Source: Planctomycetota bacterium
Lineage (GTDB): Bacteria > Planctomycetota > UBA11346
Direction of reading: 5' to 3'
DNA: 64,000 nt
Assembly: GCA_038231435.1 (NCBI GenBank)
Contig: JBBRLJ010000004.1
Coordinates: forward strand, 64,001-128,000
The notes below the pieces were generated by a model that was given only the letters and a program-made list of their open reading frames with translations, was not told the DNA's origin and ran no database searches. Position numbers and translations under genes: made by a program. Below, in pieces: positions 21,652 through 52,467 of the stretch; position 1 is the stretch's first letter; each line of letters starts with the position of its first letter.

Positions 21652-21739
21652 GAAGACGGAAGTCTGAAGATCGAAGACCGGACACGTTTTCCGGCGTTCA
21701 CGTGCGTCTTGGCTCTCTCCTCTTCCGTCTTCCGTCTTC
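21652..21739. repeat. inverted heptamer array element 1 (GAAG arm then CTTC arm)
   Basis: GAAGACG GAAGTCT GAAGATC GAAGACC ... CCTCTTC CGTCTTC CGTCTTC between convergent atpC and transglutaminase gene. Confidence 0.85.
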
Positions 21740-25142: not shown

Positions 25143-25314
25143 GATGTCGGTCGTCGGTTGTCGGGCTTCAGTCTGCGATCTTCGGTCTTCAGTCTTCGAT
25201 CTTCGATTGTCGAACTTCTAGCCTTCGCACGTTCCCTGCATCTCGAAGCACGTGGAGAAAGCAGGAGAAGAGGGAAGATGGAAGACCGAAGACGGAAGAT
25301 CGAAGAGGAAGACA
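25143..25314. repeat. inverted heptamer array element 2 (CTTC arm then GAAG arm)
   Basis: About 11 units with 7-bp period 25143-25219 (GTTGTCG GGCTTCA ... ATCTTCG GTCTTCA GTCTTCG ATCTTCG) and 7 units GAAGAGG GAAGATG GAAGACC GAAGACG GAAGATC GAAGAG GAAGACA at 25267-25314. Confidence 0.9.
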
Positions 25315-27853: not shown

Positions 27854-27923
27854 GGGGACTCCTGGGCCGGGCTTATAGCCGAGGGCGGGGGAAGGAGAAG
27901 TTGGAAGGGGGAAAGGGGGGAAA

Positions 27924-28101
27924 GGGGAAGACAGAAGATGGAAGACGGAAGAACGAAGACCGGAAGACGCGACAGCATAGTCGGATGCGTCAGGCGGGAG
28001 CAGGAACCTCGCATGACGAAAACCTCCGACCAACCGTCTGGTCTCGTCTCTCTTCGATCTTCCATCTTCCATCTTCCCGTCCTCTGCCTTCTGTCTTCCC
28101 C
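27924..28101. repeat. inverted heptamer array element 3 (GAAG arm then CTTC arm)
   Basis: GAAGACA GAAGATG GAAGACG GAAGAAC GAAGACC ... GATCTTC CATCTTC CATCTTC ... TGCCTTC TGTCTTC; perfect outer 14-bp IR GGGGAAGACAGAAG / CTTCTGTCTTCCCC. Confidence 0.9.
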
Positions 28102-28116
28102 CTCCCCCTCCGCAGC

Positions 28117-28122
28117 TACCCT
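28117..28122 (+). promoter_or_regulatory. putative -10 box (TACCCT) of leaderless rnz
   Basis: TACCCT, 6 nt, then GTG 28129. Confidence 0.55.
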
Positions 28123-28128
28123 GTTTTC

Positions 28129-29121
28129 GTGCACATCACCTTCCTCGGCACCTCCGCCGGCGTGCCCACGCTCGGACGCAACGTCACCAGCCAGGCGGTG
28201 ACCTTCGATCATGGCGGGATTTGGCTGCTCGACTGCGGCGAGGCCACGCAGCACCAGCTGATGCGCGCGGGCCTCAGGCCGATGAAGATCGAGCGCATCC
28301 TGATCACGCACCTGCACGGCGATCACTGCTTCGGCTTGCCCGGCGTGCTCTCGACCATGGCGATCAATGGCCGCACCGAACCGGTGCGGTTGATCGGCCC
28401 GCGCGGCGTGCGCGAACTGATCGAGACCACCCTGCGCATCTCGGATTCGTTCATGCCCTTCTCGCTCGACATCACCGAGCTCGATCCGTTGAGCACTGGC
28501 CGCGAGCTCGGTACCTGGGATGGATGGACGGTCTCGTCGCACCCGCTGCCGCACCGCGTGCCGTGCTTCGGCTACTGCCTGACTGAAGGCGTGCGCCCCG
28601 GGCGCTTCCATCCGGATCGCGCCGAAGCGCTCGGCGTGCCTGCGGGGCGGCTCTTCGGCGAACTGCAGCGCGGGCGCGCGGTGACGCTCGCCGATGGCCG
28701 CGCCGTCCAGCCCAACCAGGTCGCCGATCCGCCGCGTCCGGGGCGCAAGTTGGTGCTGCTCGGCGACACCTCGGACCCGAGCGCGCTGCTCGAAGCGGGG
28801 AGCGACTGCGATCTGCTGGTCTGCGAGACCACCTATGATCGCGCCCGCGAGGACAAGGCCCGCCAATGGGGCCACAGCACCACGCGCATGACCGCGGACT
28901 TCGCCCACCGCCTGCGCGCGCGCGCGCTGATCATCACCCATTTCAGCAGCCGCTACACCGAAGGCGACGCCAGCGACGCGGCGCAGGGCGATGACGAGGA
29001 TGGCGTAGCGCCCACCCTGAGCGTCGATGACCTGCTCGCTGAAGCCGCCGAAGCCTGTCCGGGAACCACGGTCCTCGCCGCCCGCGATCTGTGGAAATAT
29101 ACGATCTCTGCGAAGGACTGA
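28129..29121 (+). CDS. rnz: ribonuclease Z
   Basis: FLGTSAGVP..GRN, DCGEATQ, THLHGDH, exosite GVP.G, GDT, GHST, THFSSRY; start GTG 28129. Confidence 0.95.
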   Translation: MHITFLGTSAGVPTLGRNVTSQAVTFDHGGIWLLDCGEATQHQLMRAGLRPMKIERILITHLHGDHCFGLPGVLSTMAINGRTEPVRLIGPRGVRELIETTLRISDSFMPFSLDITELDPLSTGRELGTWDGWTVSSHPLPHRVPCFGYCLTEGVRPGRFHPDRAEALGVPAGRLFGELQRGRAVTLADGRAVQPNQVADPPRPGRKLVLLGDTSDPSALLEAGSDCDLLVCETTYDRAREDKARQWGHSTTRMTADFAHRLRARALIITHFSSRYTEGDASDAAQGDDEDGVAPTLSVDDLLAEAAEACPGTTVLAARDLWKYTISAKD

Positions 29122-29158: not shown

Positions 29159-29269
29159 CGGCTTCAAACTTCAATCTTCAGACTTCAATCTTCGGTCTTC
29201 CATCTTCCGTCTTCTGTATCCGTGCCACGGAGACGGCAGGAGAAGACGGAAGACCGAAGACCGAAGACT
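29159..29269. repeat. inverted heptamer array element 4 (CTTC arm then GAAG arm)
   Basis: 8 units CGGCTTC AAACTTC AATCTTC AGACTTC AATCTTC GGTCTTC CATCTTC CGTCTTC, spacer, then GAAGACG GAAGACC GAAGACC GAAGACT. Confidence 0.9.
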
Positions 29270-29289
29270 CGAGACCGGAGAGCGATTCC

Positions 29290-35266: not shown

Positions 35267-35390
35267 GGTTGTCGGGCTTCCGTCTTCGATCTTCGATCTT
35301 CCGTCTTCCCTCTTCGATCTCCGTCTCTCCAGCACAGCTGGCGAATGACGAGGGAGACCGGAGAAGATGGAAGACGGAAGACTGAAGAGC
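35267..35390. repeat. inverted heptamer array element 5 (CTTC arm then GAAG arm)
   Basis: GGTTGTC GGGCTTC CGTCTTC GATCTTC GATCTTC CGTCTTC CCTCTTC GATCTCC ... GAAGATG GAAGACG GAAGACT GAAGAGC. Confidence 0.9.
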
Positions 35391-37799: not shown

Positions 37800-37805
37800 G
37801 GCGGG

Positions 37806-37811
37806 AGCTTA
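37806..37811 (-). promoter_or_regulatory. putative -10 box (TAAGCT) of a leaderless transcript
   Basis: TAAGCT, 6 nt, then ATG 37799. Confidence 0.55.
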
Positions 37812-37868
37812 GTTCGGGGGACGGGGGGAAGCTAGATGGGAGGGGTGGATGGCTGACAGGGGTGGGAT

Positions 37869-37936
37869 GGGGGGGGGGGGGGGAATTGGGAAGGGAAGAC
37901 GGAAGACGGAAGAGTGAAGAGTGAAGACTGAAGACC
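37869..37936 (+). repeat. heptamer array element 6 (solo GAAG arm) preceded by G15 run
   Basis: G15 at 37869-37883, then GAAGACG GAAGACG GAAGAGT GAAGAGT GAAGACT GAAGACC at 37895-37936. Confidence 0.85.
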
Positions 37937-37980
37937 GGAGACAAGACGGAGCGAGACTCAGAAGCTCCCCTGCGTCCTCC

Positions 37981-39813
37981 TCACGTTGACTCCGCCGCCG
38001 TGGCGAACTGCCTATACAAATTCATATACACCCCCCCGCGATCCAGCAGCTCCTCGTGCCTCCCCCTCTCCACCACCTTCCCGTGGTCGAGCACCAGCAC
38101 CTGGTCCGCGTGCCTGATGGTGCTCAGGCGATGCGCGACCACGAAGCTGGTCCGTCCGGCGAGCAGCGTCTCGAGCGCGCGCTGCAGTCGCGCCTCGGTC
38201 ATGCCGTCCACCGAGCTGGTGGCCTCGTCGAGGATGAGGATGCGCGGGTCGGCGAGCAGGGCGCGGGCGAAGCACACCAGTTGGCGCTGGCCGAGCGAGA
38301 TGCCGCTGCCGCGCTCGCCGACGACGGTGGCGAAGCCGTTGGGCAGCGCCTCGATCAGATCGAGGCAGTTCAGGCGACGCGCGGCCTCGACGATCTCGGC
38401 GTCCGTCGCCTCGGGACGACCGACGCGGATGTTGTCGTAGATCGTGCCGCTGAAGAGGAAGTTGTTCTGGGCCACCAGGCCCATCTGCCGGTGCAGCGAA
38501 TGGCTGGTGACGCTACGCAGGTCGTGGCCGTCGACGAGGATCTCGCCGGAAGTCGGCAGGTAGAATTTCGCAATCAGGTTGATGATCGAGCTCTTCCCGG
38601 ACCCGGTGTGGCCGACCAACGCGACGGTCTGCCCGGGTTCGACGACCAGATCGACATCCAGGAGCACCGGCCTGCCGGCATCGTAGGCGAAGCCGACGCG
38701 CCTGAGTTCGACGCGGCCGCGGATGGGCGGCAGATCCGTGGCGCCTGGCGGATCCTGCCAGGCCGGCTTGGTGTCGAGCAGCTTGAAGATGCGTTCGGCC
38801 CCGGCCATGGCGGTGAGCGCCTGGTTGTAGAGGTTGCCCAGAGTCGGGATCGGGCCGAAGAACAGATTGGCGAGAACGAAGAACTGAAGGAGCGTCTCGA
38901 CGTGCATCTCGCCGCCCAGGACCCAGGTGCCGCCGATGATCAGCAGCAGCGCGGTGAACAGCTGGCCGTTGAATTCGAGCAGCGGCAGGAACACCGCCGA
39001 CAGCTGCGCGACGCCCATGCTGTAGCGTGAATGGTCGAGGATCAGCGAGCGGAAGAGACCGCCGTTGACGTCCTGGCGCACGAAGCCCTGGGTGACGCGG
39101 ATGCCGTTGACCGATTCGGCGAGCGTGGCGGTCACGCGGCTGAAGCTCTCCTGCACCTCGCGATTGGCGCGGCTGAGCTTGAAGCGGAATTTGCGGTTGA
39201 TGGTCCACAGCACCGGCACCATCGCCAGCACCACCATGAACAGCTTCCAGTCCATCCACACCATGCACGCCGCCGCGCCCAGCATCTGGCCGAACTGCAC
39301 CACGCTGACGAAGGCGACATCCTGCACGCCGGCGCGCACCACGTCGACGTCCGAGGTGATGCGGCTGATGATGCGCCCGAGCCTGGTCTTGTGGTAGAAC
39401 TCCATCGGCAGGGTCTGCAGGTGCCGGTAGATAGCGTCGCGTAGATCGTGGACCACCGCCTCGCCCAGCTCCAGCGCAAGCCGCTGGCGGAAGTGCAGGC
39501 AGATGTTGGTGAACAGCGCCAGCGCGAGGTACCCGCCGACCGCCGATAGGATGACCTGGAAATCGCGCTGATCCTGCGGCAGCTTGTGCTGGCGCACGAT
39601 CAGGCCCAGCACCCAGCCCATGGCCATGCCCAGGGCCGGCAGCTGCAGCGAGCGCAGGATGACGAAGGCGTAGAGCACATTGCGCTTGAGCGCGTACGGC
39701 CTGGTGAACGAGAACATGCGCACGATCAACGCGTATTCGAGCGGACGCTGCTCGATCTCGCGCTCGCGCGCGGGCTGGATCTGCACGATGCCACCGAGCG
39801 GCTTGCCGGTCAT
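37981..39813 (-). CDS. ABC exporter ATP-binding/permease subunit
   Basis: TMD plus NBD: GHTGSGKS, ISLGQRQ, ILDEATS, AHRLST. Confidence 0.95.
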   Translation of the reverse strand: MTGKPLGGIVQIQPAREREIEQRPLEYALIVRMFSFTRPYALKRNVLYAFVILRSLQLPALGMAMGWVLGLIVRQHKLPQDQRDFQVILSAVGGYLALALFTNICLHFRQRLALELGEAVVHDLRDAIYRHLQTLPMEFYHKTRLGRIISRITSDVDVVRAGVQDVAFVSVVQFGQMLGAAACMVWMDWKLFMVVLAMVPVLWTINRKFRFKLSRANREVQESFSRVTATLAESVNGIRVTQGFVRQDVNGGLFRSLILDHSRYSMGVAQLSAVFLPLLEFNGQLFTALLLIIGGTWVLGGEMHVETLLQFFVLANLFFGPIPTLGNLYNQALTAMAGAERIFKLLDTKPAWQDPPGATDLPPIRGRVELRRVGFAYDAGRPVLLDVDLVVEPGQTVALVGHTGSGKSSIINLIAKFYLPTSGEILVDGHDLRSVTSHSLHRQMGLVAQNNFLFSGTIYDNIRVGRPEATDAEIVEAARRLNCLDLIEALPNGFATVVGERGSGISLGQRQLVCFARALLADPRILILDEATSSVDGMTEARLQRALETLLAGRTSFVVAHRLSTIRHADQVLVLDHGKVVERGRHEELLDRGGVYMNLYRQFATAAEST

Positions 39814-41678
39814 GGCTGATCCGCCTCGCGCAGGCGGCGACGCGTGTCGTCGTCCATCAGCTGCATCTCGGCGGCACGGAAATAGTGACCGCCGGCGCGC
39901 ATCAGTTCGTCATGACCGCCACGCTCGACGATGCGGCCGCCATCGAGCACCAGGATGGTGTCAGCGCGTTTGAGCGTGCTCAGGCGGTGGGCGACCACGA
40001 AGGTGGTGCGGCCCTTGATCGCCTTGTCCATGGCCTCGAGGATCTCGTGCTCGGTCTGCGCGTCGATCGCGGCGGTGGGATCGTCGAGCAGCATGATCGA
40101 TGGCTCGAGCAGCACCGCGCGGGCGATCGCCAGGCGCTGGCGCTGGCCGCCCGAGAGGTTCACACCGGATTCGCCGAGTATGGTCTGGTAGCCGTGGGCC
40201 AGTCCGACGATGAACTCATGCGCGCTCGCCACCCTGGCGGCGCGTTCGATCTGCTCCTGCGTGGCCTCGGGATGGCCGAAGGCGATGTTCGCCGCCACAG
40301 TGTGGCTGAACAGGAAGCTCTCCTGGAAGACCAGGCCAATGCGCCGACGGAGCGTATCCACGTCCATGCGCCTGATGTCGGTGCCATCGATGAGGATCTG
40401 CCCGCGCGTCGGGTCGTAGAAGCGCGGGATCAGGCTCATCAGCGTGCTCTTGCCGGATCCGGTTGCGCCGAGGATCGCCACGCATTCCCCTGGTTTCACC
40501 GCGAAATCGATATCGGTGAGTACCGGATCGCCGGCCTGGTAGTGGAACGATACCTGCTGGAAGGTGACCGCGCCCGAGATCGCCACGGGTTTGACCGCCT
40601 CCTTGGGGCTCTGGACCTCGATCGGGGTGTCGAGCACCTCGAACACCCGCTTGGCGCCGACCAGGCTCTGCTGCGCGGTGTTGGTGATGTTGGCGATCGA
40701 CGACACCTGCGCCGAGAACTGCGAGAGCAGGCCGACGAACACCATCAGTCCGGTGCCGAATTCCAGCTGATCGTCGAGCACCAGCCAGCCGCCGTACGAC
40801 AGCAGAACGGTCAGGCTGACCAGCGGCAGCATTTCCACCGTCGGGTTGTAGAAGCTCAGGCGCCAAAAGATGCGGCGCTGCTGATCGCGGACCTCGGCGT
40901 TGGCGGTCGCGAACTTGGCGTGCTGCTCACGCTCGCGCGCGAAGCCCTTGGTCACCTGGATGCCCTGCATGCTCTCCGTGAAGCCGAGGATCATGGTGTC
41001 CACCAGATCGCGGTTCTTCGCGTACTCGGGTCGCACCCAGCGCGAGAACAGGGTGGTGATGATCCACAGCACCGGGACGGTGAGCAGGCAGACCACGGTG
41101 AGACGCACGTGCAGCGACAGCATGTAGCCGAGGTAGATCGCCAGCGACAACACCATGATCACGCTCTGCATGAGCACGCCGTCCACGAACGCACGCACCG
41201 ACTGCACGTCACCGGTCACGCGATTGATGATCGAGCCGCTCGCGTTGGCGTCGAAGAAGCGGAAGCTCAAGCGCTGGAGCTTGTCGTAGACCTGCCCGCG
41301 CAGGTGGACCACGATCTCTTGCTGCACCAGGCGGGTGAGGGCCATGGTGTAGAAATAGTTGAGCACCGCGCGGGCCGCGGCCATGCCCAGCACCAACAGA
41401 CCGATCAGTCCGATCTCGGCGGTCGGCTTCCAGGTCGCTGGCGGATGCAGGCCGAAGGGCCAATGCGCGGGCTTGCCGTTATCGGCGTGCTCCTTGATGA
41501 CATCGAAGCCGAGTCCAATGAGCCCGAGGCCGGCGACGCCCAGCAACAGCAGCACCACCTGGTAGCTCAAGACCGCCAGGCATTGCCGTCGGTACTGCCA
41601 GCTGAGCGCGAGCAGACGACGGATGAGCCGACCGTTGTCGTAGGGGTCGGGCAGGACTGGACGCGGTGAGTCGGTCAT
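39810..41678 (-). CDS. ABC exporter ATP-binding/permease subunit
   Basis: TMD plus NBD: GATGSGKS, LSGGQRQR, LLDDPT, AHRLST; start ATG 41678 preferred. Confidence 0.95.
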   Translation of the reverse strand: MTDSPRPVLPDPYDNGRLIRRLLALSWQYRRQCLAVLSYQVVLLLLGVAGLGLIGLGFDVIKEHADNGKPAHWPFGLHPPATWKPTAEIGLIGLLVLGMAAARAVLNYFYTMALTRLVQQEIVVHLRGQVYDKLQRLSFRFFDANASGSIINRVTGDVQSVRAFVDGVLMQSVIMVLSLAIYLGYMLSLHVRLTVVCLLTVPVLWIITTLFSRWVRPEYAKNRDLVDTMILGFTESMQGIQVTKGFAREREQHAKFATANAEVRDQQRRIFWRLSFYNPTVEMLPLVSLTVLLSYGGWLVLDDQLEFGTGLMVFVGLLSQFSAQVSSIANITNTAQQSLVGAKRVFEVLDTPIEVQSPKEAVKPVAISGAVTFQQVSFHYQAGDPVLTDIDFAVKPGECVAILGATGSGKSTLMSLIPRFYDPTRGQILIDGTDIRRMDVDTLRRRIGLVFQESFLFSHTVAANIAFGHPEATQEQIERAARVASAHEFIVGLAHGYQTILGESGVNLSGGQRQRLAIARAVLLEPSIMLLDDPTAAIDAQTEHEILEAMDKAIKGRTTFVVAHRLSTLKRADTILVLDGGRIVERGGHDELMRAGGHYFRAAEMQLMDDDTRRRLREADQP

Positions 41679-41931
41679 GTGGCGGACGAGCCGTGGCGGC
41701 TGCGTGCGAGACCAGGGAGTGTAGACAGCGTCGAGCGAACGATAGGCCGGCTCCAGAAGCATCGGCCATGCCATTGCTTGCGGGGCTTTGAGCTCACCGG
41801 CGCTGGTATTTTCCACTCCCCGGTGGTCGATCCGTCGAAGAGCACCCTCGTACAACGTTTCGGGCTCGGCGATTGGAGGATGAAGGAGGAGCCGCTCCGA
41901 TGCTGCCTCACACGAAGGAGCCATACATCAC

Positions 41932-42606
41932 ATGCGCTGCACCACTGCCATCTCCGCCCTCACCGCCACCCTCGCACTCATGGCCATCCCCATGCCCAGC
42001 GCCGTCGCCATGGACCGCGACAACCAGGCGACCGTCAACCGCGCGACCGGAAATACCCGCCCGTCGCTCGGTCACGAAAATGCGCGCAGCGGCAACAGCT
42101 ACGAGATCAATGATCTGCGCGGCGAGATCGGCCTGCTGCCGAACCACGCCTCGAATGGCGTGCAATGGGATTCCAACATCCGCGTCGGCATCCAGGCGAT
42201 GCGTTCTACCGAGCGCATGGGGGACTATGGCGGCCTGATCTATGGCGGCGAGTTCTCAGTGAACTTCGCCAACGACCCGAGGGTCGACATGAACAGTGAA
42301 GTCTTCACCGGCATGGTCGGATGGGGCTACAAGCTGCAGCAGGTCGAGGGCCTGCATTTCGAGGGCACGCCGTTCCTCGGGCTCGGCTTCGCCCAGCTCA
42401 AGGCGTCGGGCGGCAACAGCGCCGATTCCCTCTATTACGAGTACGGTCTGCGCGTGGCCGCCATCTATACGTTCGAGAACCTCTGGCAGATCGGCGGCGA
42501 TCTGCGTCTGCTACGCAACCACGTCTCGCCCGATTTCGGCGGTGGCAACGTCGACATCAACACCAGCGGTCCGGCCCTGCTGTTCGTGGTCGGCAAGCGT
42601 TTCTGA
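41932..42606 (+). CDS. outer-membrane beta-barrel protein (about 8 strands)
   Basis: GAAGGAG upstream, signal peptide, alternating beta strands, C-terminal VVGKRF. Confidence 0.75.
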   Translation: MRCTTAISALTATLALMAIPMPSAVAMDRDNQATVNRATGNTRPSLGHENARSGNSYEINDLRGEIGLLPNHASNGVQWDSNIRVGIQAMRSTERMGDYGGLIYGGEFSVNFANDPRVDMNSEVFTGMVGWGYKLQQVEGLHFEGTPFLGLGFAQLKASGGNSADSLYYEYGLRVAAIYTFENLWQIGGDLRLLRNHVSPDFGGGNVDINTSGPALLFVVGKRF

Positions 42607-42650
42607 GTGCACGGCGGCGGGCGGCCCGCCATCCGTCGATCGTGATCTCC

Positions 42651-42685
42651 GCTCCCCGCGGCACCAGCCGCGGGGAGCTTCGTTT
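42651..42685 (+). terminator. intrinsic terminator
   Basis: 12-bp stem GCTCCCCGCGGC-ACCA-GCCGCGGGGAGC followed by TTCGTTT. Confidence 0.7.
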
Positions 42686-42744
42686 CGCCCAGGAGGGACT
42701 GGTCCGGGGTTGCGCCCGATGGGGATGCGGGAATCGTCAGCGCG

Positions 42745-43548
42745 ATGCGTCCGACGCTCGTCGCCCTGGATCTCGACGGTACCCTGCTGACCGAGGATTC
42801 GCGCCTGCCCGAGGGCCATGCCCGCGCAGTGCGCGAACTCACCAGCCTCGGTGCGACCGTGGCCATCGTCACCGGCAGGCCGCTCCTGACCACGGACTGG
42901 GTATGGCGCGCGCTCGGCCTGCCCGTGCCCGTGGTCTGCTTCAATGGATCGTGGGTCGGCACGCCAGGACGGACGCCGCTCGCCTGCGCCGCGCTGAGTG
43001 AGTCCGAAGCCCGCGCCATCATCGCCGAATTGCGCGCCTTCGATGGCGCGATCTGCGCCTATCCTGACGTGCACAGCTGGGTGATGGACCACGAGATCGC
43101 GCATACTCGCCGCTGGCGCGAGTATTATGGCGTGCCCATAACCATCGAACCCGCGCGGTTCGACGCCTGGCAAGGATCCACGCTCAAGCTGATGTTCGTC
43201 GCGCCGCCAGCCGCGATGGCCTCGATCGCGCCGCTTCTGCATGCATCCCTCGGCAAGCGCTTCTACGTGGTGCTCAGCCAGGAGGACCGCATCGAGATCC
43301 TGCCGCGCGGCATCACCAAGGCCTGGGGCCTCGAGCGCCTCGCGCGGCACGTCGGTGTCGCCCGTGACGACGTGTGGGCTGTGGGCGATGCCGACAACGA
43401 CCGCGAGATGGTGGCGTGGGCCGGCCACGGCTGCGCCATGGGCCAGGCGCCGCCAGGGCTCAAGCGCCTCGCCCGTCACGTGCTGCCGTCGATCCAGGCC
43501 CGCGGGCTGTGTGCCCTGCCGACGCTGATCGAACGCGAGTCGCGATGA
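42745..43548 (+). CDS. Cof-type HAD-IIB family hydrolase
   Basis: DLDGTLL, TGR, NGS, TKAWGL, GDADND..M. Confidence 0.93.
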   Translation: MRPTLVALDLDGTLLTEDSRLPEGHARAVRELTSLGATVAIVTGRPLLTTDWVWRALGLPVPVVCFNGSWVGTPGRTPLACAALSESEARAIIAELRAFDGAICAYPDVHSWVMDHEIAHTRRWREYYGVPITIEPARFDAWQGSTLKLMFVAPPAAMASIAPLLHASLGKRFYVVLSQEDRIEILPRGITKAWGLERLARHVGVARDDVWAVGDADNDREMVAWAGHGCAMGQAPPGLKRLARHVLPSIQARGLCALPTLIERESR

Positions 43549-44087
43549 CCAGCCAGACGGCCGACGACGGGACCTGGGCCTATCAATGGCCAGCGGGCGC
43601 CCGCCTGGCGCGCGACTTCGCCACGATCGTCAGCTGCGTCGGCCTGGCGGTGTGCGATCTGGGCTGCGGAGCCGGTGCGCTCGGCCGCGCCGCGCTCGCC
43701 GGCGGAGCGCGGTCGGTGACCTTCGCCGACGGCAATCCCGCTGCGCTCGCGTCGGTACACGCGGCCCTGGGCGCGATGGCTGACGACGCGCGCATCGAAT
43801 TCCATCCCCACCGCTGGGGCGAGCCGCTGCCGGGAGCACCGTACGACCTCATCCTCGGCGGCGATATCCTCTACCGCCCCGAATGTTTCGCCGACCTGCT
43901 CACCTCGATCGCCCATGGCTTAGGCGAACATGGACGATGCCTGCTGTCCGACCCGCGCAAGGTCCTGGAGCCCGAGTTGCCGATGTTCGCCGAGGAACGG
44001 GCGTTGACGTGGACGACCAGGAGGATGAAGGATTATACGTTGGTGGGGATAGCCAAGAAGATGGGAGAAGAGAAGACTGAAGGCTGA
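43545..44087 (+). CDS. class I SAM-dependent methyltransferase (Methyltransf_16-like)
   Basis: WPAG..LA, DLGCGAG, FADG, WG, DLILGGDILY; ATGA overlap start 43545. Confidence 0.85.
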   Translation: MTSQTADDGTWAYQWPAGARLARDFATIVSCVGLAVCDLGCGAGALGRAALAGGARSVTFADGNPAALASVHAALGAMADDARIEFHPHRWGEPLPGAPYDLILGGDILYRPECFADLLTSIAHGLGEHGRCLLSDPRKVLEPELPMFAEERALTWTTRRMKDYTLVGIAKKMGEEKTEG

Positions 44088-44175
44088 AGGCTGAAGGCTG
44101 AAGGCTGAAGACTGAAGCATCTGCCCCCTCTTTCATCTTCCATCTTCTATCTTCTATCTTCTATCTTCAGTCTTC
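44072..44175. repeat. inverted heptamer array element 7 (GAAG arm then CTTC arm), overlapping both convergent gene ends
   Basis: GAAGACT (GAAGGCT)4 GAAGACT GAAGCAT ... (CATCTTC)2 (TATCTTC)3 AGTCTTC; outer IR GAAGACTGAAG / CTTCAGTCTTC. Confidence 0.92.
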
Positions 44176-45158
44176 CCTTTTCCCGCCTTCTCCCTCTCCC
44201 TGACCCGTTCCAAAACCTCCTCCATCCGTGGCGTCCGCACCCCGAGGACCTTCGCCCTCCTCACCGGCTCCGCGAACATCGCCTCGGTCTCCATCGGCTC
44301 CCCCGCACGCCAATCCAGTAACGTGCTGGTGAGGTACGGCCCCATGCTCTCGGTGCGCGCAATCATCTCGCGCACCCAGTCATCACCGATGTGCGCGGCC
44401 GAACCGGCGGCCGACAGGTCCGCGTTCGCCACCGCTACCACCTCGCGCATGAGCTCCTCGAGCAGTGCGCGGCTCGCGGGATCGCGCATGATCTCCTCGG
44501 TCGACGAGCCCTGCTCGCCGAGGGCGACGCTCAGACCGTTGTAGGGGAAGTTCCAGACCAGCTTGCGCCAGCGCGCTTCCAGCAGGCAGGCGACGCCGTG
44601 GTGGGCGATGCCGGCCAAGTCGAGCAGCCCGGTAAGCTCGGCGACACGCTCGGGGCGATCCCGGAAATGCCCGACCAGCACTTTGCCATGTGCTTGATGA
44701 TGGATGCTACCATCTGCGCGGCGACGCACGCACACGTGGGCCACGGCGCCGAACACGCGCTCGGGATCGCACCACGACGCGAGCGCTTCTTCAACGCCCA
44801 AGCCGTTGCACATCGCGACGATGCGCGTGGATGCGCCGAGCATCGGATCGAGCAGCGCGCGCGCCGCCGGTAGGGCCGTGGTCTTCAGCGCCAGCAGCAC
44901 CCAATCGGGAGCGCCGCCTCGCGCGCATTCGGCGGGAGCGAGGCAGGCGTGGAATGCGCCCGGAGACAGGTGCAGCGACGCTCCGTCGCGCGCGCGCGCG
45001 ATCTCGGGAGTCGGGGTGGTGTCGATGCGGATGCCGTCGGCGCTGATGCGCGCATGATCGCGCCTGAGCAGGAAACGCAGATCCAGCCCCGCGAGCGCGA
45101 ACTGCGCGCCGTAGAACAGCCCGATCGCGCCGCTGCCGACCACCGCCATCGAGGCCAT
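44154..45158 (-). CDS. panE: 2-dehydropantoate 2-reductase (ketopantoate reductase)
   Basis: GSGAIG, LKTT, NGLG.E, W.KL.WN..YNGL, TSTLLD...G...E. Confidence 0.88.
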   Translation of the reverse strand: MASMAVVGSGAIGLFYGAQFALAGLDLRFLLRRDHARISADGIRIDTTPTPEIARARDGASLHLSPGAFHACLAPAECARGGAPDWVLLALKTTALPAARALLDPMLGASTRIVAMCNGLGVEEALASWCDPERVFGAVAHVCVRRRADGSIHHQAHGKVLVGHFRDRPERVAELTGLLDLAGIAHHGVACLLEARWRKLVWNFPYNGLSVALGEQGSSTEEIMRDPASRALLEELMREVVAVANADLSAAGSAAHIGDDWVREMIARTESMGPYLTSTLLDWRAGEPMETEAMFAEPVRRAKVLGVRTPRMEEVLERVREREKAGKGKTEDRR

Positions 45159-45164
45159 GCCGAC

Positions 45165-45170
45165 ATCCTA
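45165..45170 (-). promoter_or_regulatory. putative -10 box (TAGGAT) of leaderless panE
   Basis: TAGGAT, 6 nt, then ATG 45158. Confidence 0.55.
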
Positions 45171-45342
45171 CGCCGCAAACCAGCGCGCGCACCGGCGAGC
45201 GCCAGGCGGGGCTCCAGGAGGGTTGCCGCGCATGGATGCAACCACGGTCGTGCGAACGGTTTCTACGCGGAAAAACGCGGTATTGTATGCTCTCCTTGGG
45301 GGTTGTCTTGGTCACCTCGGATCACAAACTGCCGCATTCCCC

Positions 45343-48216
45343 ATGAACGTGCTCGCACCGCTGACCCACATCGCCGCCGGCTTCTACGTGCTCGCGGTGT
45401 TCCTGCTCGCCATCTATGGCGTTCACAGCGTGTGGCTGCTGCGCCTGTTCCTCAAGCACCGCCACGTCGCGAGCGCGCAGGAGCGCCTCGAGGCGGCGAC
45501 GCCACTGCCGGATGACGCCGACCTGCCGCACATCCTGGTGCAGCTGCCGGTGTTCAACGAACGCGACGTGGTCGAGCGCCTGGTAGAGGCCGTTGGCCGC
45601 CTCGACTGGCCGCTCGACCGCCTGCACATCCAGCTGCTCGACGACAGCACCGACGACAGCGTCGATATCGGCAGCGCGGCGTGCGAACGCCTACGAGCGC
45701 GCGGCCTCGACGCGCACAGCCTGCACCGCATCGATCGGCGCGGCTTCAAGGCCGGGGCGCTCACCGCGGGCATGCGCGACGACGAGTCTCCGTTCATCGC
45801 CATCTTCGACGCCGACTTCGTGCCCGAGAGCGACTTCCTGAAGAAGGCGATCAAGCCACTGCTCGCTGATCCGGATCTCGCGCTGGTTCAGGGACGCTGG
45901 GAACATCTGAACCGGCACGCCAACCTCCTGACCTCGGCGCAGTCGCTCGGCATCGATGGGCATTTCGCCATCGAGCAGGGAGCCCGCGCGTGGTCGGGCC
46001 TGGCGATGAACTTCAATGGCACCTGCGGGCTATGGCGGCGATGCGCGATCGTCGCCGCCGGCGGCTGGGAGCACGACACGCTGACCGAGGACATGGACCT
46101 CAGCTACCGCGCCCAGCTCAAGGGCTGGAAGTGCACGTACCGCACCGGACTGGCCGTGCCGGGCGAGGTGCCCGCGACGGTGAGCGCGTGGCGCGGCCAG
46201 CAGTTCCGCTGGGCCAAGGGATCGATCCAGACGGCGATGAAGCTGCTGCCGTCGGTGTGGCGTTCGCGCTGGAGCCTGCACGCCAAGCTCGCCGCGACGC
46301 TGCACATGACCCACTACCTGGTGCATCCGCTGATCCTGACGAGCCTGTTCTGTGCGCCGCTGACCCTGCTGCTGATCAATCATCTGCCGATCTGGATGCT
46401 GATGCTCGGGCTGTGCGGATTCCTGGTCGGCGCGGCGTCGCCGCTCACCGTCTACACGATCAGCCAGTTCGTGCTCTACGGCCGGCAAGGTTGGCGGAAC
46501 CTGCGCCATCTGCCGGCGCTCGCGGCCCTGGGAACCGGCATCGCCGTGTCGAATTCGACCGCGGTGTGGCAAGCCCTACGCGGCAAGCAGTCAGCCTTCG
46601 TGCGCACGCCCAAGCAGGGCTCGGTGGGCTCCAGCAGGCCCACCGGCAGCTATCGCGCGCGGCCGGCGAGCGGCATGGCCGAGCTGTTCTGCTCGTGCTG
46701 GGCGGCGCTCGGACTGGCGATCGGCTGCACCGGCGCGCACACCTGGATCACCCCGCTGCTCGGGCTCTACCTGTCGGGCTTCGCGTGGATGGCTTACTAC
46801 AGCATGCGCGAGCGCCAGGCTTTCGACCGCCATGCCGCTCGTGCCGACGCGCCCAGCGGTCCCTCGCCGATGCCGTGGCTCGTTCCCACCGGCATCCTGC
46901 TGATGGCGGGCTACGTCGCCCTCGGCCTCCTGCCCGGCTCGTGGCGTTCGTCGCCCGCATCGTTCGCCGGCATCGCGCTGGCGCTCGGTGGAGTCTATCT
47001 GGTTGCAGCGCGGGCCGTGCGCAAGCTCAACGGCGGTGGACCGACACTCGCCTGGATCGTGGTCGTCGCCGTGGCCATCCGCGTCGCCAGCCTGGGCATC
47101 GAGATGTCGGACGACCTCAACCGCTACGTGCTCGAAGGCCGGCAGATCGCGGTCGGGCAGAATCCGTACCTGATAAGCCCACTGGATCCGGCGGCGCGCG
47201 CGCTCGGCGACACCAAGTTCCCTGGCAGCGTGCTGCTCGCCGTGAACCATCAGGACTGGACCTGCATCTACCCGCCGATGACTCTCGGTTACGAGGCGCT
47301 GGTCACCTCGCTGTCGGTGCAGCCGTTCGCGTTCAAGCTCGCCGGGATGACCTGCGAGCTCGCCGCGCTCGGCCTCGTGCTCGCGCTGCTCGCGCGCCTG
47401 CGCATGGCGCCGTCGCTGCTGCTGCTCGCGGCGTGGAATCCGGTCGGTCCGATCTTCCTCTGCGGCGAGGGCCACAACGACGCGGCCATGGTGCTGTTGC
47501 TCGCGCTCGGGCTCTACCTGTCATCGGGCAACCATCATCGCCGCGGCATCATCGCCATCAGCCTGGCCGCGCTCGCCAAGCCGTTCGCGGTCATCGCTCT
47601 GCTGCCCATGCTGCTGACCCGCGGTTGGGCGTGGTGGCTGCTGCCGCCCGCCATCGCCGCGGTGGTGTACCTGCCGTTCCTGGATGCCGGCAAGCACCTG
47701 TTCTCGACCATGGGCCACTTCGGCTCGGCGCTGCACTTCCACGGCGCGCTCGAACCCTTCGCGCGCATGACACTCAGTCAGATCGTCGCCACCGACTCCG
47801 TCCAGACAGCGGTGGTGTGCGCGTTGGCCGCAGCCTGGATCGGCGGATCGCTGGTGATCCTCGCGCGCCATCGCCGCTCCCCCGACGCCCAGCCGCTCGA
47901 GCTCACGGTGCGCCTGCTGGCGATGCTCCTGGTGTGTCTGCCGACGCTGCACGCGTGGTACCTCGCCCCCCTAGCCCTGCTGCTGCCGTTCACGCGCTCG
48001 TGGGGACTGACGCTGTGGGTGGCGATGGCTCCGGTGTACTGGCTGCACGCCCTCGCCAACACCCAGCCCACGGACTTCCTCGAGATCCCCTGGGTCACGG
48101 CGCTCGCCCACCTGCCCGCGCTCGCCCTGCTGGCGTACGAGGCGTTCGGGCGACCTGATCCCCGTCGCGACGCGGACACCGCCGAGGACATCGTCCCCGG
48201 CACCCAGCCCGTCTGA
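45343..48216 (+). CDS. fused processive GT2 (cellulose-synthase-like) + GT-C (GT87/DUF2029-like) glycosyltransferase
   Basis: QLPVFNE, DDSTD, GFKAGAL, DADF, TEDMD, QQFRW; second half SDDLNRY..EGR..GQNPY, YPP, AWNP, GHND, KP with many TM helices; start ATG 45343. Confidence 0.85.
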   Translation: MNVLAPLTHIAAGFYVLAVFLLAIYGVHSVWLLRLFLKHRHVASAQERLEAATPLPDDADLPHILVQLPVFNERDVVERLVEAVGRLDWPLDRLHIQLLDDSTDDSVDIGSAACERLRARGLDAHSLHRIDRRGFKAGALTAGMRDDESPFIAIFDADFVPESDFLKKAIKPLLADPDLALVQGRWEHLNRHANLLTSAQSLGIDGHFAIEQGARAWSGLAMNFNGTCGLWRRCAIVAAGGWEHDTLTEDMDLSYRAQLKGWKCTYRTGLAVPGEVPATVSAWRGQQFRWAKGSIQTAMKLLPSVWRSRWSLHAKLAATLHMTHYLVHPLILTSLFCAPLTLLLINHLPIWMLMLGLCGFLVGAASPLTVYTISQFVLYGRQGWRNLRHLPALAALGTGIAVSNSTAVWQALRGKQSAFVRTPKQGSVGSSRPTGSYRARPASGMAELFCSCWAALGLAIGCTGAHTWITPLLGLYLSGFAWMAYYSMRERQAFDRHAARADAPSGPSPMPWLVPTGILLMAGYVALGLLPGSWRSSPASFAGIALALGGVYLVAARAVRKLNGGGPTLAWIVVVAVAIRVASLGIEMSDDLNRYVLEGRQIAVGQNPYLISPLDPAARALGDTKFPGSVLLAVNHQDWTCIYPPMTLGYEALVTSLSVQPFAFKLAGMTCELAALGLVLALLARLRMAPSLLLLAAWNPVGPIFLCGEGHNDAAMVLLLALGLYLSSGNHHRRGIIAISLAALAKPFAVIALLPMLLTRGWAWWLLPPAIAAVVYLPFLDAGKHLFSTMGHFGSALHFHGALEPFARMTLSQIVATDSVQTAVVCALAAAWIGGSLVILARHRRSPDAQPLELTVRLLAMLLVCLPTLHAWYLAPLALLLPFTRSWGLTLWVAMAPVYWLHALANTQPTDFLEIPWVTALAHLPALALLAYEAFGRPDPRRDADTAEDIVPGTQPV

Positions 48217-48219
48217 CCG

Positions 48220-48864
48220 ATGTCGCCGACGCTGCTGGTCTTCGCCAAGCCCCCGGTGCTCGGCCAGGTGAAGACCCGCCTCGCGCATGCACTGGGAGAC
48301 GCCAGCGCCCTCGCCGTGTATCGGTGCTTGTTGGAAGTCACCGCGCGCGCGATCGCCACCTGGCCAGGCCCGATACGGGTGCTGACTGCCGGAGACATGG
48401 CGGCCTTCGCCGGGACGCCGCTCGCGTCATTCCCCTCGCGTCCCCAGTCTGACGGCGGGCTCGGCGCACGCTTGGCCGCCGGATTCCGCGCGGTACCGGG
48501 CCCGGCGCTGGCCATCGGCACCGACTGCCCCGGGCTCGCCCCAGACCATCTACGCCGGCTGGCGGCCGCCCTGGAGCGGCATCCCGCGGTCTTCGGCCCC
48601 GCCCACGACGGCGGATATTGGGGCGTCGCCGTCGGGGATGCTCGCTGCATCCCGGTCTGCTTTGCCGACGACCTGCCATGGTCGCGTCCGTCGCTGCTCG
48701 CGGAAACGATGGCGCGGCTGGCCGGGAACGGCATCGTCGCGGGGATGACCGACACGCTCGCCGATCTGGACGACGCCGAGGATCTCGCCTCTGCCGAACG
48801 CCATGGGTTCGTCTGGCGCGTCACGCCTGGCTCCGCGGAACGCTCGAACGAAGGATCGCCATGA
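48220..48864 (+). CDS. TIGR04282/DUF2064 family glycosyltransferase-like (CofC-like fold) protein
   Basis: FAKPP..GQVKTRL, Q..GGLGARL, IGTDCP, GPAHDGGYW, PWS, LADLD..EDL. Confidence 0.9.
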   Translation: MSPTLLVFAKPPVLGQVKTRLAHALGDASALAVYRCLLEVTARAIATWPGPIRVLTAGDMAAFAGTPLASFPSRPQSDGGLGARLAAGFRAVPGPALAIGTDCPGLAPDHLRRLAAALERHPAVFGPAHDGGYWGVAVGDARCIPVCFADDLPWSRPSLLAETMARLAGNGIVAGMTDTLADLDDAEDLASAERHGFVWRVTPGSAERSNEGSP

Positions 48865-49406
48865 ATCGTACCGTCAAGCTGGTGATCTCCGGAGCTCTCG
48901 GCCTCGCGGTGGGACTGGCCTGGGGCTTCACCCGCAAGCCGATCGTCCCGCCGCTGAGCCTGCCGAGCCAGCCATCCGCGCCGATGGCTCCGACGCACTC
49001 GCCTGCCGCGGGCGTCTCAAGCACTGGAGCCGGCGCGAGCGCGCTCGCCACCGCCACCACCGCGCAGGACCTCGAGCGCCTGCTCGTCGGACATCCAGGA
49101 ACCGCGCTCCTCGATTTCCACGCGGAGTGGTGCAAGCCCTGCAAGGAACTCGAACCACGGCTGGTCGAGCTCGCCGCCAAGCGCCCCGATCTGCTGGTGA
49201 TCTCGATTGACGTGATGGCGGCCGAGGAGCTCGCCAAGGCGTACAACGCCGACCTGCTGCCACTGCTGGTGCGCATGGAAGGTGGCAAGGAGACCGCGCG
49301 CCAGAGCGGCGCCCCGAGCCTCGATGATCTCACGCGCTGGCTGGTACAGCCGACTCCGTCCGTTCCCCAGCCATCTCCCCAGCCATCTCCCCAGTTGAAG
49401 CCCTGA
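48861..49406 (+). CDS. membrane-anchored thioredoxin family protein
   Basis: N-terminal TM, DFHAEWCKPC, LLP; ATGA overlap start 48861. Confidence 0.88.
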   Translation: MNRTVKLVISGALGLAVGLAWGFTRKPIVPPLSLPSQPSAPMAPTHSPAAGVSSTGAGASALATATTAQDLERLLVGHPGTALLDFHAEWCKPCKELEPRLVELAAKRPDLLVISIDVMAAEELAKAYNADLLPLLVRMEGGKETARQSGAPSLDDLTRWLVQPTPSVPQPSPQPSPQLKP

Positions 49407-49458
49407 GCCAAACCGCCCGCGTCAACGCTGCGTATACATCGGGAACCGCGGAGGGAAC

Positions 49459-51711
49459 ATGAGCAACGTCCTGGCCGCATACGCGCACTGGCTGCACCTG
49501 CGCTGGCCGGCTGGCCGCGTCGAGCACTTGCCGATGGTCGGCGAACGCGGCGACACGCGTCTCGAGGGCGTCTACGTGGTCGGTGACCTGGCCGGCGTGC
49601 CGCTGCTGAAATTCGCGCTCGATACCGGCGCCAAGGCGGCCAAGCGCTGCGCGCAGGAGCTGCGCGGGTCGCAGAGCGGAGCGCCGGATGGAGATCAGAA
49701 GCGCGCGTCAGGAGCCGCGATGGAGGGCCTGCTGGATGTCGCCATCATCGGTGCTGGCGTCGCCGGCATGGCGGCGGCGATCGAGTGCGCGAAGCAGGGC
49801 CTGCGCTTCGCCGTCCTCGAATCGGCGAAGCCGTTCGCCACCATCGCCAATTTTCCCGCCGGCAAGCCGATCTTCACCTATCCCCGGCGCATGACGCCAG
49901 ACGGGCACCTGCAGGTCGGCGCGGACGTGAAGGAAGCCCTGATCGCTGAACTCGAGCGCCAAGTGGCGGGTTTCGACATCCCCGTCACCACCGCGGTCTT
50001 CGAACGCATCGAGCGCCGTGGGTCGGCGCTGGCGGTGATTGGCACGGGTAGCGAACCGCTGCTCGCGCGTCGCGTGATCGTCGCGATCGGACGCAGTGGA
50101 AACTTCCGCCGACTCGGCGTGGCCGGAGAGGATCTCCATCAGGTCTCGAACCGCCTGCACGATCCGAAGGTCCATGCCGGAGAGGACGTGGTCGTCGTCG
50201 GCGGTGGCGACAGCGCGCTCGAGGCGGCCATCGCGCTGTGCACAGCCGGCGCCAAGGTCACGCTGTCCTACCGCGGCGCCGAGTTCAGCCGCCCCAAACC
50301 CGAGAACGCCGAGGCCATCGCGCGCCTCGCCACCGCGAGCACGCCGGGCCTGACACTGAAGCTCGGCAGCACGGTGACGAGGATCTCCGCGGGCTCGGTC
50401 GAGCTCAGCGCCAAGGGCGGCCCTCCCGAGACGGTGCCGGCCGCGGCGGTGTATGTGCTGATCGGACGCGAGCCGCCGCTCGACTTCTTCCGCAAGAGCG
50501 GCCTGGCCATTCGTGGCGAGACAGGTTGGAGCGGCATCCTCGGGCTGGTGCTCTTCGCCACCTTCGCCTGCCTGCTCTATGGCTGGAAGAGCCTCGGGTG
50601 GGCGAACCACGCGGTGGAACCCACGCGCTGGGTGAAGGCCCTGGATCCGCTGGTGGCAAGCGAACGCAATCCGCTGCATTGGGCGGTGAGCTCGGCGCAC
50701 AATCCATCGTTCTGGGTCACGCTGCTCTACACCTCGGTGGTGGTCGGCTTCGGTATCGCGCGCATCCGCCGGCGCAGGACGCCGTATGTGACCGCACAGA
50801 CCATCTCGCTGATGGCGTTCCAATGCCTGCCGCTGTTCCTGCTGCCCGAGATCATCCTGCCGTGGATGAACGCCTGCGGATGGATCCCGCACGCGATGGT
50901 GGCGAATCTCTTCCCCGACGGTTCGTGGTGGCGTGCCTACGGCTTCATCCTCGCCTGGCCGCTGATGGCCTGGAACCTGTTCACCGATCAGCCGATGTGG
51001 TGGTGGCTGGGGATCAGCATCGCCCAGACCCTGGTGATCATCCCACTGATCGTCTGGAAATGGGGCAAGGGCGCGTACTGCGGCTGGATCTGCTCGTGCG
51101 GTGCGTTGGCCGAAACCCTCGGCGACACACAGCGCGAGAAGATGCCGCACGGCCCCGGTTGGAACAAGGTCGACCTCGTCGGCCAGGGCGTGCTCGCGAT
51201 CGCCGTGATCATCTTGGGGGTGCACGTGTCCCACTGGATCTGGCCGCAGGTGCCGTCGCTCACCAGCTTCATGAGCGGCTGGCTACGTCCGGCCTGGCAC
51301 ATCGGCGTCGACTATGTCCTCGCCGGCGCGCTGGGTGTGGGTCTGTACTTCCACATGTCCGGCCGCGTGTGGTGCCGCTTCGCCTGCCCGCTCGCGGCGC
51401 TGATGCACATCTACGCCCGCTTCTCGAAGTTCCGCATCGTCCCGGACAAGAAGAAGTGCATCTCGTGCAACGCCTGCACCACCGCCTGTCACCAGGGCAT
51501 CGACGTGATGAACTTCGCCAACAAGGGCGCGCCGATGGCGGATCCCGAATGCGTGCGCTGCTCGGCCTGCGTGCAGGTGTGTCCGACCGGCGTGCTGCAG
51601 TTCGGCGAGGTCGACCGTCAGGGCCGCGTACTGAAACTCGATGCGCTGCCCGCGAGCCCGGTGCTGATGCGCGAAGCCCGGGACCAGCCGCTGGAGTCGA
51701 TGAAGTCGTGA
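49459..51711 (+). CDS. FAD/NAD(P)H oxidoreductase fused to membrane polyferredoxin (NapH/MauN-like) domain
   Basis: GVYVVGD, IIGAGVAG, VVGGGDSA, CGWICSCG, CRFACP, CISCNACTTAC, CVRCSACVQVCP; GGAGG RBS. Confidence 0.88.
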   Translation: MSNVLAAYAHWLHLRWPAGRVEHLPMVGERGDTRLEGVYVVGDLAGVPLLKFALDTGAKAAKRCAQELRGSQSGAPDGDQKRASGAAMEGLLDVAIIGAGVAGMAAAIECAKQGLRFAVLESAKPFATIANFPAGKPIFTYPRRMTPDGHLQVGADVKEALIAELERQVAGFDIPVTTAVFERIERRGSALAVIGTGSEPLLARRVIVAIGRSGNFRRLGVAGEDLHQVSNRLHDPKVHAGEDVVVVGGGDSALEAAIALCTAGAKVTLSYRGAEFSRPKPENAEAIARLATASTPGLTLKLGSTVTRISAGSVELSAKGGPPETVPAAAVYVLIGREPPLDFFRKSGLAIRGETGWSGILGLVLFATFACLLYGWKSLGWANHAVEPTRWVKALDPLVASERNPLHWAVSSAHNPSFWVTLLYTSVVVGFGIARIRRRRTPYVTAQTISLMAFQCLPLFLLPEIILPWMNACGWIPHAMVANLFPDGSWWRAYGFILAWPLMAWNLFTDQPMWWWLGISIAQTLVIIPLIVWKWGKGAYCGWICSCGALAETLGDTQREKMPHGPGWNKVDLVGQGVLAIAVIILGVHVSHWIWPQVPSLTSFMSGWLRPAWHIGVDYVLAGALGVGLYFHMSGRVWCRFACPLAALMHIYARFSKFRIVPDKKKCISCNACTTACHQGIDVMNFANKGAPMADPECVRCSACVQVCPTGVLQFGEVDRQGRVLKLDALPASPVLMREARDQPLESMKS

Positions 51712-52424
51712 GCCTCGGCTCCGGCAGCGGCGACAACGGCTGCGGTGGAAGCGGCGAATGCGGTGGAAGCAGGGCGGCCCGGGTGAGCGTCATCATCCCG
51801 ACACGCGACGAAGAACGCCTGCTGCCGGGCCTGCTCGACCGCCTCGCCATCCTCGGCGGCTGGCACGAGGTGATCGTCGCTGACGGAGGCTCGCGCGACC
51901 GCACCCGCGAGATCGCGCAGGCCCATTCCATCGTCACGCGCCTGGTCGCGGGCCGTGACCGCCACGAGCAGTTGAACGCCGCGCTGCGCTCCGCCACCGG
52001 CGATATCGTCCTGCTCATCGGAGCCGATCTTCGACCCGGTCGCGGCACCCTCGCACGCCTGCGCGCGACCCGCGCCCCCGCCGGCTGCCTCGCCCTGCGT
52101 CACGCGCGGCGCGCCTGGATCTACCGCTGGGGCGACGCGTTCGCCCGCCTGCGCGCCCGCTGGACCCGCGGCGCCTACCTCGACCAAGCCCCCTTCTTCG
52201 CCCGCACCAAGGCCATCGCCGCCGGCGGTTTCCCCGCGCACGGAACCTACGACACCAGCGCCCTTGGACGTCAGCTCACCGGACGGAAGTCGTTCGCCAT
52301 CCTGCCCGCGCCAGTGGTGGTGTCGTGCCGAGCGTGGAGCACCCCCGTTCGCACGTTCGCGCGGTATCAGGGGAAGCGGCTGCGGTATCTGATGCAGGGG
52401 GATGGGCGAGAGGCGAGAGGCTAG
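51708..52424 (+). CDS. GT2 family glycosyltransferase (TIGR04283-like)
   Basis: VSVIIPTRDE, EVIVADGGS.D.T, QLN, GDIVLL.GAD, YLDQ..F, GGFP, SCRAW; GTGA overlap start 51708 (alternative GTG 51783). Confidence 0.8.
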   Translation: MSLGSGSGDNGCGGSGECGGSRAARVSVIIPTRDEERLLPGLLDRLAILGGWHEVIVADGGSRDRTREIAQAHSIVTRLVAGRDRHEQLNAALRSATGDIVLLIGADLRPGRGTLARLRATRAPAGCLALRHARRAWIYRWGDAFARLRARWTRGAYLDQAPFFARTKAIAAGGFPAHGTYDTSALGRQLTGRKSFAILPAPVVVSCRAWSTPVRTFARYQGKRLRYLMQGDGREARG

Positions 52425-52467
52425 AGGCAGGAGAAGATGGACGACGGAAGTTCGAAGAGGGAAGAGC
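52405..52467 (+). repeat. heptamer array element 8 (solo arm) overlapping GT2 stop codon
   Basis: Continuous 7-bp period: GGCGAGA GGCGAGA GGCTAGA GGCAGGA GAAGATG GACGACG GAAGTTC GAAGAGG GAAGAGC. Confidence 0.75.

Follow-up and report, generated by a model that had tools for sequence, protein, structure and literature searches.

Loss of cytosine on the strand running into heptamer arrays in a planctomycete genome, and its recurrence beside four-helix-bundle cassettes of other bacteria

Tandem repeats with a seven-base unit have been described between the genes of Xanthomonas and Nostoc, where they often form convergent inverted pairs and keep their positions while varying in length and sequence, and heptamer repeats are over-represented in bacteria without explanation (Rehm et al. 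2015, PMC4692102). Here, we analyzed a window of 64,000 nucleotides (nt) from a genome assembly of the Planctomycetota (G000:C4:64001-128000; the assembly, G000, has 5.2 Mb, 67% GC and is 88% complete), in which eight intergenic clusters of 7-base tandem repeats (elements 1-8) are present and the DNA strand running into several of them is depleted of cytosine (C). As in Xanthomonas and Nostoc, the arrays are intergenic and often convergent inverted pairs. The earlier paper treats heptamers as G-quadruplex candidates, while the units here are mostly not G-tracts; in the available excerpts of that paper, the word “skew” is absent and neither a four-helix-bundle gene nor a codon shift in the flanks is mentioned.

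Three further systems resemble parts of what we found. The intervening sequences of 23S rRNA genes, as in Coxiella, carry an open reading frame of the S23p family (PF05635), the same four-helix-bundle family that accompanies the arrays described below, in an insert bounded by inverted repeats, and the abstract of the report makes no mention of changed flanking DNA (PMC4990558). In contrast to these inserts, the elements here lie between protein genes, are mostly gene-less and are bounded by heptamer arrays; an Rfam search of window positions 24000-54000 gave no match, so a location in 23S rRNA is not shared. Diversity-generating retroelements mutate adenine specifically, whereas the base lost here is C. 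They combine an Avd-like protein with local base-specific mutagenesis, both of which are likenesses to the present system, and PF05635 itself resembles Avd, as far as the consulted parts of the source go (PMC10053308). Unlike them, the genome here has no reverse transcriptase match and the targets of its elements are arbitrary gene ends; no pair of template and variable repeats was seen, no systematic search for one having been made. Strand-coordinated mutation clusters switch polarity across the site on which they are centered, as do the halos here in G000 and in the Gemmatimonadales, many of the G000 sites being one-sided. In such clusters, which form in yeast and tumours on resected single-stranded DNA, C is altered only on the strand whose 3' end lies at the site, as here (PMC10164571), the APOBEC changes being C-to-T and C-to-G (PMC11230362), according to the portions of these papers that we consulted. 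The halos differ in their range of 50-100 nt rather than kilobases, in having no sharp motif and in lying at fixed, recurring sites.

Heptamer arrays with inverted pairs, S23p inserts and strand-coordinated clusters are thus already known from the consulted parts of the three reports cited above, and another paper, in its consulted parts, only lists four-helix-bundle genes in tables (PMC5524665). What appears to be new is the halo of C loss beside heptamer arrays, a solid, replicated and unexpected footprint for which candidate causes are weighed below. No description of C-depleted flanks of heptamer arrays was found in a literature search that excluded supplements and left subscription journals mostly outside its reach.

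Genes of G000 were called with a codon model of our own (3943 genes, 86% coding) and named from Pfam. We measured the halo as the frequency of C at synonymous or fourfold degenerate (4-fold) sites, comparing array-facing with array-free gene ends, and we call the strand running 5'-to-3' into a heptamer array the inward strand. Element 6 (37894..37950, + strand) is an array of about 8 copies of a GAAGACN-type unit, without an inverted partner and folding no better than shuffles. On its left, the spacer 5' of a metallo-beta-lactamase gene (37805..37893, +) contains a G15 run and only 6 C in 89 nt; on its right lies the C-depleted 3' end (37981..38090, -) of an ABC transporter gene (37981-39813, -), in which the protein is conserved, the codons are derived, and synonymous C falls to 7/28 in the last 40 codons against 0.63 in the gene body. 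The paralogous ABC gene (39810-41678) serves as a control; its 3' end (39813..39912, -) faces no array and has a normal 33 C in 100 nt, compared with 15/100 at the array-facing end, as the sequence-only reading of this DNA had noticed. Element 7 (44072..44176) consists of inward-pointing inverted arrays, of GAAGGCT type at 44072-44117 and of TCTTCNA type at 44129-44176, with a predicted hairpin (z -8.6). Its left halo (44000..44071, +) is the 3' end of a methyltransferase gene (43545-44087, +; synonymous C 6/20 in the last 40 codons against 0.60 in the body) and its right halo (44177..44270, -) is that of panE (44154-45158, -; 4/21 against 0.55). Element 8 (52405..52460, +) is a degenerate array of GGCGAGA and then GAAG-type units, preceded by a halo (52355..52404, +) at the 3' end of a GT2 glycosyltransferase gene (51783-52424, +) with synonymous C at 1/14 in its last 20 codons.

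The earlier reading had held that genes pointing into elements 6, 7 and 8 give up C-rich codons while keeping the protein. The codons that it quoted are present and the C counts are low, but the last codons of panE and of the methyltransferase gene lie in or adjoin the array as tails derived from it, and are not conserved protein. The halo is also not universal at array-facing ends, since three such ends in the window show little or none (24/30 for 21761-23269, 24/33 for 35403-36857 and 18/35 for 28129-29121). The inversion of skew proposed around elements 3, 6 and 7 is borne out, with inward-strand C, left and right, at 8/66 and 6/51 for element 3, 6/89 and 15/100 for element 6, and 8/72 and 14/94 for element 7, all below the expected 0.337 (p 1e-9 to 3e-4). 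Element 3 (27860..28128), with inverted arrays at 27926-27969 and 28051-28077, lies between two divergent genes and has halos on both flanks though no gene 3' end is involved.

The halo is real across G000. Period-7 arrays are mostly intergenic in this genome (186/236, compared with 6-52 for the other periods between 4 and 13) and their density, 3 per 100 kb over the whole genome, rises to 8-11 per 100 kb on contigs C4 and C25. In the last 20 codons of the 90 genes whose 3' ends face purine-type arrays, the ratio of C to G at 4-fold sites is 330:562, compared with 7842:6849 in 1403 array-free ends (p 1.6e-21), so the codon shift read from a few genes holds genome-wide. AGG makes up 24% of arginine codons in array-facing ends and 7% in array-free ends, TTG 23% and 11% of leucine codons, and T 34% and 26% of 2-fold pyrimidine sites, while 2-fold purine sites are unchanged; 31% of the array-facing ends are C-poor compared with 4.4% of the controls. 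The control is conservative, because, among the 28 “array-free” ends poorest in C, inspection by eye shows degenerate arrays at about 12. All 16 codon classes lose C, and no single neighbour rule or sharp motif is seen at the lost C.

As expected from the same reading, the shift depends on distance, decaying within about 30 codons and fading out by 50-100 nt. Inward-strand C in successive 25-nt bins before 77 single arrays is 0.16, 0.21, 0.27 and 0.31, against a baseline of 0.34, and the opposite side of these arrays shows little C loss. Within 50 nt, C at 4-fold sites is 0.23 vs 0.52 in genes pointing in and 0.20 vs 0.41 in genes pointing away. With this similar strength in both orientations, gene starts facing arrays show a mirror shift (75 ends, odds ratio (OR) 1.27, p 8e-4), and the effect therefore follows the strand running into the array and not the gene. 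We found 318 very C-poor windows: 88 are situated upstream of an element, read on the same strand, and 2 are exclusively downstream of one. Both sides are skewed in only 10/41 multi-array and 10/116 single-array gaps among the 157 gaps of G000.

Comparison with orthologs shows that the C loss is derived. Eight ABC orthologs, with the same C-terminal protein, keep 19-28 synonymous C of 37-40, compared with 10/32 here, and both the ABC and the panE proteins align with their orthologs through the halo. In G001, a genome of the same genus, panE has its own array and synonymous C at 10/31 at its end against 121/204 in its body; a different heptamer pair, free of C, occupies the spacer that corresponds to element 6 downstream of the ABC ortholog. 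G002 is without these arrays at the ABC and panE ends. The sequence of the G000 assembly is present in sediment and soil sequencing runs; a metagenome scan using panE found no relative. The methyltransferase halo is common to a relative about 10% diverged (one contig, depth 5), and among the 17 listed differences to it, only the relative has C at 7 and only G000 has C at 2. Another read comparison listed 40 of about 1900 differences, most belonging to other organisms. No variant was found in three runs of the same study, which were compared as contigs, where rare variants drop out.

None of the 17 genes of the four-helix-bundle family PF05635 in G000 lies on the contig of the window, and 12 of them stand in six convergent pairs (G000:C28:44800-46100, C25:14350-15600, C13:113600-114900, and on C34, C50 and C62). 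The five loci that we inspected are bounded by arrays of the same unit types as those of the window, and by halos; we infer that the elements of the window are gene-less members of this family of heptamer-array cassettes. PF05635 is present in 30/48 genomes of the taxonomic family of G000, and the four-helix-bundle family matches a Xanthomonas pentamer (PDB 2gsc, E 1e-20). In three pairs and two single loci, each PF05635 gene follows a conserved leader, about 150 nt long and containing an inverted repeat, that may act as a structured RNA or as a binding site; other genomes of the family have a similar leader. The two single loci have an inverted leader without a second gene, and one gene (G000:C47:9906-10214) has an in-frame stop near its start. 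A search of a phage collection gave no four-helix-bundle match, while a plasmid search gave 30 records with one; Nostoc PCC 7120 also has the gene.

C loss on the strand entering the arrays occurs in at least two phyla. In nine other genomes of the family, C rises from 0.14-0.27 in the 50 nt next to cassette edges to 0.22-0.38 farther away. Across 230 cassette flanks, C is lower near the edge in 145/173 with a G-rich outer unit and in 49/57 with other units, G, A and T each take up a share of the lost C, and T is not depleted beside A-rich units; the dependence on unit composition present within G000 is thus absent here. The set of mixed phyla is only partly above control, because array-free gene ends in these loci drop by 0.03-0.045 as well. 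The sampled part of a Gemmatimonadales genome, G061 (1.97 Mb of 3.3 Mb), shows the halo at 101 array-facing 3' ends (OR 0.62, p 3e-11) and its mirror at 48 array-facing 5' ends (OR 1.63, p 2e-7). On cyanobacterial plasmids (17 of 18 loci scored; one, flanked by transposases, was left out), the halo is weak (C 24/157 vs 649/3092, p 0.09), with a shift of C:G in the same direction (p 0.035). The array-flanked four-helix-bundle genes of these plasmids (L413-L430) include some inside CRISPR-cas operons, at cas6/cas4 and after cas10, and others between ribonucleotide reductase subunits and among conjugation genes.

The behaviour of the sites themselves was followed in ten Gemmatimonadales genomes of one genus, which are about 88% alike. 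The same intergenic sites are occupied in several species, with cassettes flipped (L246/L251/L290/L307; L262/L277/L289; L254/L267/L280), and the heptamer units differ between species at 8/9 site sides. Different units and flipped cassettes at fixed sites mean that the sites are active, in agreement with the proposal that these arrays are active loci rather than inert repeats. No clear target-site duplication was seen by eye, and one site lacks about 35 nt of the empty allele. At sites filled in all species, 4-fold positions within 40 nt hold G 75 times, A 4 times and C once, and 4-fold divergence in such established halos is lower (34/169) than the 0.35-0.43 found otherwise, contrary to the generally raised synonymous divergence that had been expected near arrays.

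The PF05635 cassettes are polymorphic for insertion, with five sites scored as empty in G061. Flanks from other species numbered 54; 31 could be mapped onto the sampled part of that genome, and 18 of these 31 (5 sites, 10 sides) face a site judged empty by eye. The filled and empty alleles align base by base, and C loss accompanies the element at these orthologous sites. With each site side represented by a single species, 50/137 C changed within 60 nt of the insertion vs 241/1209 farther away (OR 2.3, p 2.5e-5); 50 C were lost and 24 gained, G was better kept, T was unchanged, and A gave an OR of 1.5 (p 0.12). The 13 flanks with an array or remnant in G061 show no excess of C change (OR 1.09), and at 45-90 nt the filled/empty comparison shows no C effect. 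At 4-fold sites within 45 nt, C is kept at 5/39 compared with 316/525 far away, and G of the empty site is now C at 4/51 compared with 189/547, so the ancestral state has been forgotten. The lost 4-fold C became G in 23 cases, A in 7 and T in 4.

We consider the chances about evenly balanced that the C loss on the inward strand, over about 50-100 bases, is the footprint of local, C-specific mutagenic repair at elements of the PF05635 family. Under this explanation, the element edges would be opened and rewritten repeatedly, and the 3'-ended inward strand would be briefly single-stranded or newly made. C on it would then mutate to any other base roughly 6-fold faster than normal, through base loss and translesion fill-in or through misinsertion opposite template G. 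Purifying selection would preserve the protein, replacements would usually end as G owing to the GC preference of the genome, and gene-less arrays like those of the window would be served in trans by the four-helix-bundle protein. The other bases change normally while C goes to G, A and T, and a C-to-N multiplier (m about 6) fits kept, gained and standing C (35/289) together. The models compared were this rate multiplier alone and selection against C alone, which have the same equilibrium and different speeds; one mutator parameter beats one selection parameter by 1.8 (thinned data) to 4.1 log units. Several observations weigh against mutagenic repair. Without the term for standing composition, the two models differ by 0.1-0.4 log units; the filled/empty comparison assumes a direction, is unrooted, and rests on 5 sites with few, non-independent counts; and C (10/47) and G (10/52) at second codon positions close to the edge change equally often. 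Many halos of G000 are one-sided and track the skew of the outer array (rho 0.53), unlike a symmetric break, and divergence from the 10%-diverged relative is not raised in the halo (5/52 nt vs 11/116 on that one contig). The own 3' end of the PF05635 gene is C-poor in the family of G000 (0.25) and not in the Gemmatimonadales (0.45), the change in C outside these two groups is small (-0.05 to -0.08, compared with -0.03 at array-free gene ends), and no nuclease or polymerase is linked to the halo. The C shift is thus local, strand-polar, distance-dependent and derived, in partial support of the localized, strand-asymmetric process proposed from the sequence, while mutation and selection against C are only weakly resolved.

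Selection on RNA at normal mutation rates, which we regard as possible but rather unlikely, would favour a C-rich, G-poor strand leaving the element, on which Rho could load and stop read-out transcription, or would avoid upstream C against mispairing with the array. It leads to the same equilibrium composition as a mutator, and the lower 4-fold divergence and conserved G in halos agree with it. The range of 50-100 nt resembles a Rho footprint, Rho is present in G000, and the outward-strand composition fits. The cyanobacterial hosts are not known to carry Rho, Synechococcus not being among the control matches of our Rho search, and the weak halo on cyanobacterial plasmids suits selection in its C count, whereas the C:G shift there still points the same way. 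A selection strength S of about 2, matched to standing C, predicts that 30% of C is kept, more than the 5/39 seen (p 0.011), or 2/17 with one species per site (p 0.08). Halos that are independent of unit composition, with A-rich units not depleting T, and that lie between divergent genes as at element 3 also argue against selection on RNA, as does the near absence of pairing between left and right halos once composition is accounted for (mean z -0.58 over 21 elements). Heteroduplexes from cassette exchange or flipping, resolved against inward-strand C, would look like selection without any benefit; sites that are often rewritten and a halo independent of gene orientation suit such biased repair or conversion, but its rate is limited just as that of selection, the less well fitting model, and we know of no bacterial mismatch-repair bias of this sign and range, so we consider it improbable.

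The remaining explanations account for parts of the pattern. Creep of the arrays, with halos as decayed repeats that replaced gene tails, describes the last codons of panE and of the methyltransferase gene, and the intergenic halos of element 3 can be degenerate repeats; for the coding part it is refuted by the ABC and panE proteins that align through the halo, by filled and empty alleles that align base by base and by the independence of unit composition, and it holds for terminal tails only, which makes it a very improbable general cause. Plain deamination of single-stranded C, giving T only, has scarcely any likelihood. T is indeed raised at 2-fold pyrimidine sites, to 34% in the ends given above and to 52-54% vs 27-35% within 40 nt. 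This C-to-T-only model needs T at 20-40% of 4-fold sites and is rejected because T is found at 5-6% of them in G000 and the Gemmatimonadales; in other sets it is 11-14% compared with 9-14% far away, and T is the destination of only 4/34 lost C. The simple cytosine damage offered at the outset is therefore contradicted; with subsequent uracil removal and translesion fill-in, it would become the mutagenic repair set out above. An ordinary compositional effect of gene ends, unrelated to arrays, draws on the loss of some C at array-free ends (0.45 vs 0.52), on the 141/3242 ends without a detected array that are C-poor against 38 expected, and on the 224 of the 318 very C-poor windows that are not near a detected array. 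The large excess of C-poor ends facing arrays and the degenerate arrays seen in the control ends speak against it, and the absence of the halo at empty orthologous sites refutes it as the main cause, leaving it a negligible chance.

Candidate partners of the elements were sought in the same genomes. A reverse transcriptase partner was rejected on the lack of a PF00078 match in G000, at its 88% completeness; G002 also has no match, and matches occur in 33/48 genomes of the family. Ku, a second DnaE and Rho are present in G000, and none is tied to the halo. The second, divergent DnaE-family polymerase gene (L312, G000:C1:165119-168877) has an unusual N-terminal part. A DnaE2-like polymerase is found in many relatives as well, but it is not tied to the halo, because the halo-bearing genomes G049 and G018 have one DnaE match each (89% and 72% complete).

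The other elements of the window are similar in build. Element 1 (21721..21739, +) is a short TCTTCCG array between convergent genes, and element 2 (25146..25313) has nested arrays of GTCGGTC, TCTTCNN and then GAAGANN with a predicted hairpin (z -6.8). Elements 4 (29162..29285, between convergent genes) and 5 (35277..35388) have TCTTC-type followed by GAAGA-type arrays. Elements 2, 3, 4, 5 and 7 are predicted to fold into hairpins, and elements 6 and 8 are not. Two SpoIID-family genes (25340-26818 and 35403-36857, both -) end at elements 2 and 5 with little or no halo. A reading frame of 957 amino acids (45343-48216) begins with a GT2 domain, continues as a long unannotated hydrophobic remainder and precedes genes for DUF2064, thioredoxin, a flavoprotein-ferredoxin fusion and a second GT2.

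The large PF05635 family has no assigned function, and the halo is a measurable read-out of events at its elements. If the halo is mutational, it reveals a local bacterial mutator of a kind that we did not find described; if it is due to selection, more than 100 gene-less arrays per genome (157 gaps in G000) matter enough to recode their neighbours. Tentatively, and with doubt outweighing belief, PF05635 cassettes and gene-less arrays might together form a widespread DNA-rewriting system free of reverse transcriptase, in which an Avd-like pentamer would recruit a host polymerase or repair, write heptamer arrays at a free 3' end and turn C into any base over the preceding 50-100 nt. If this is true, bacteria would possess a site-directed hypermutator, and it would account for the excess of heptamer repeats as well as for the recoding of neighbouring genes.

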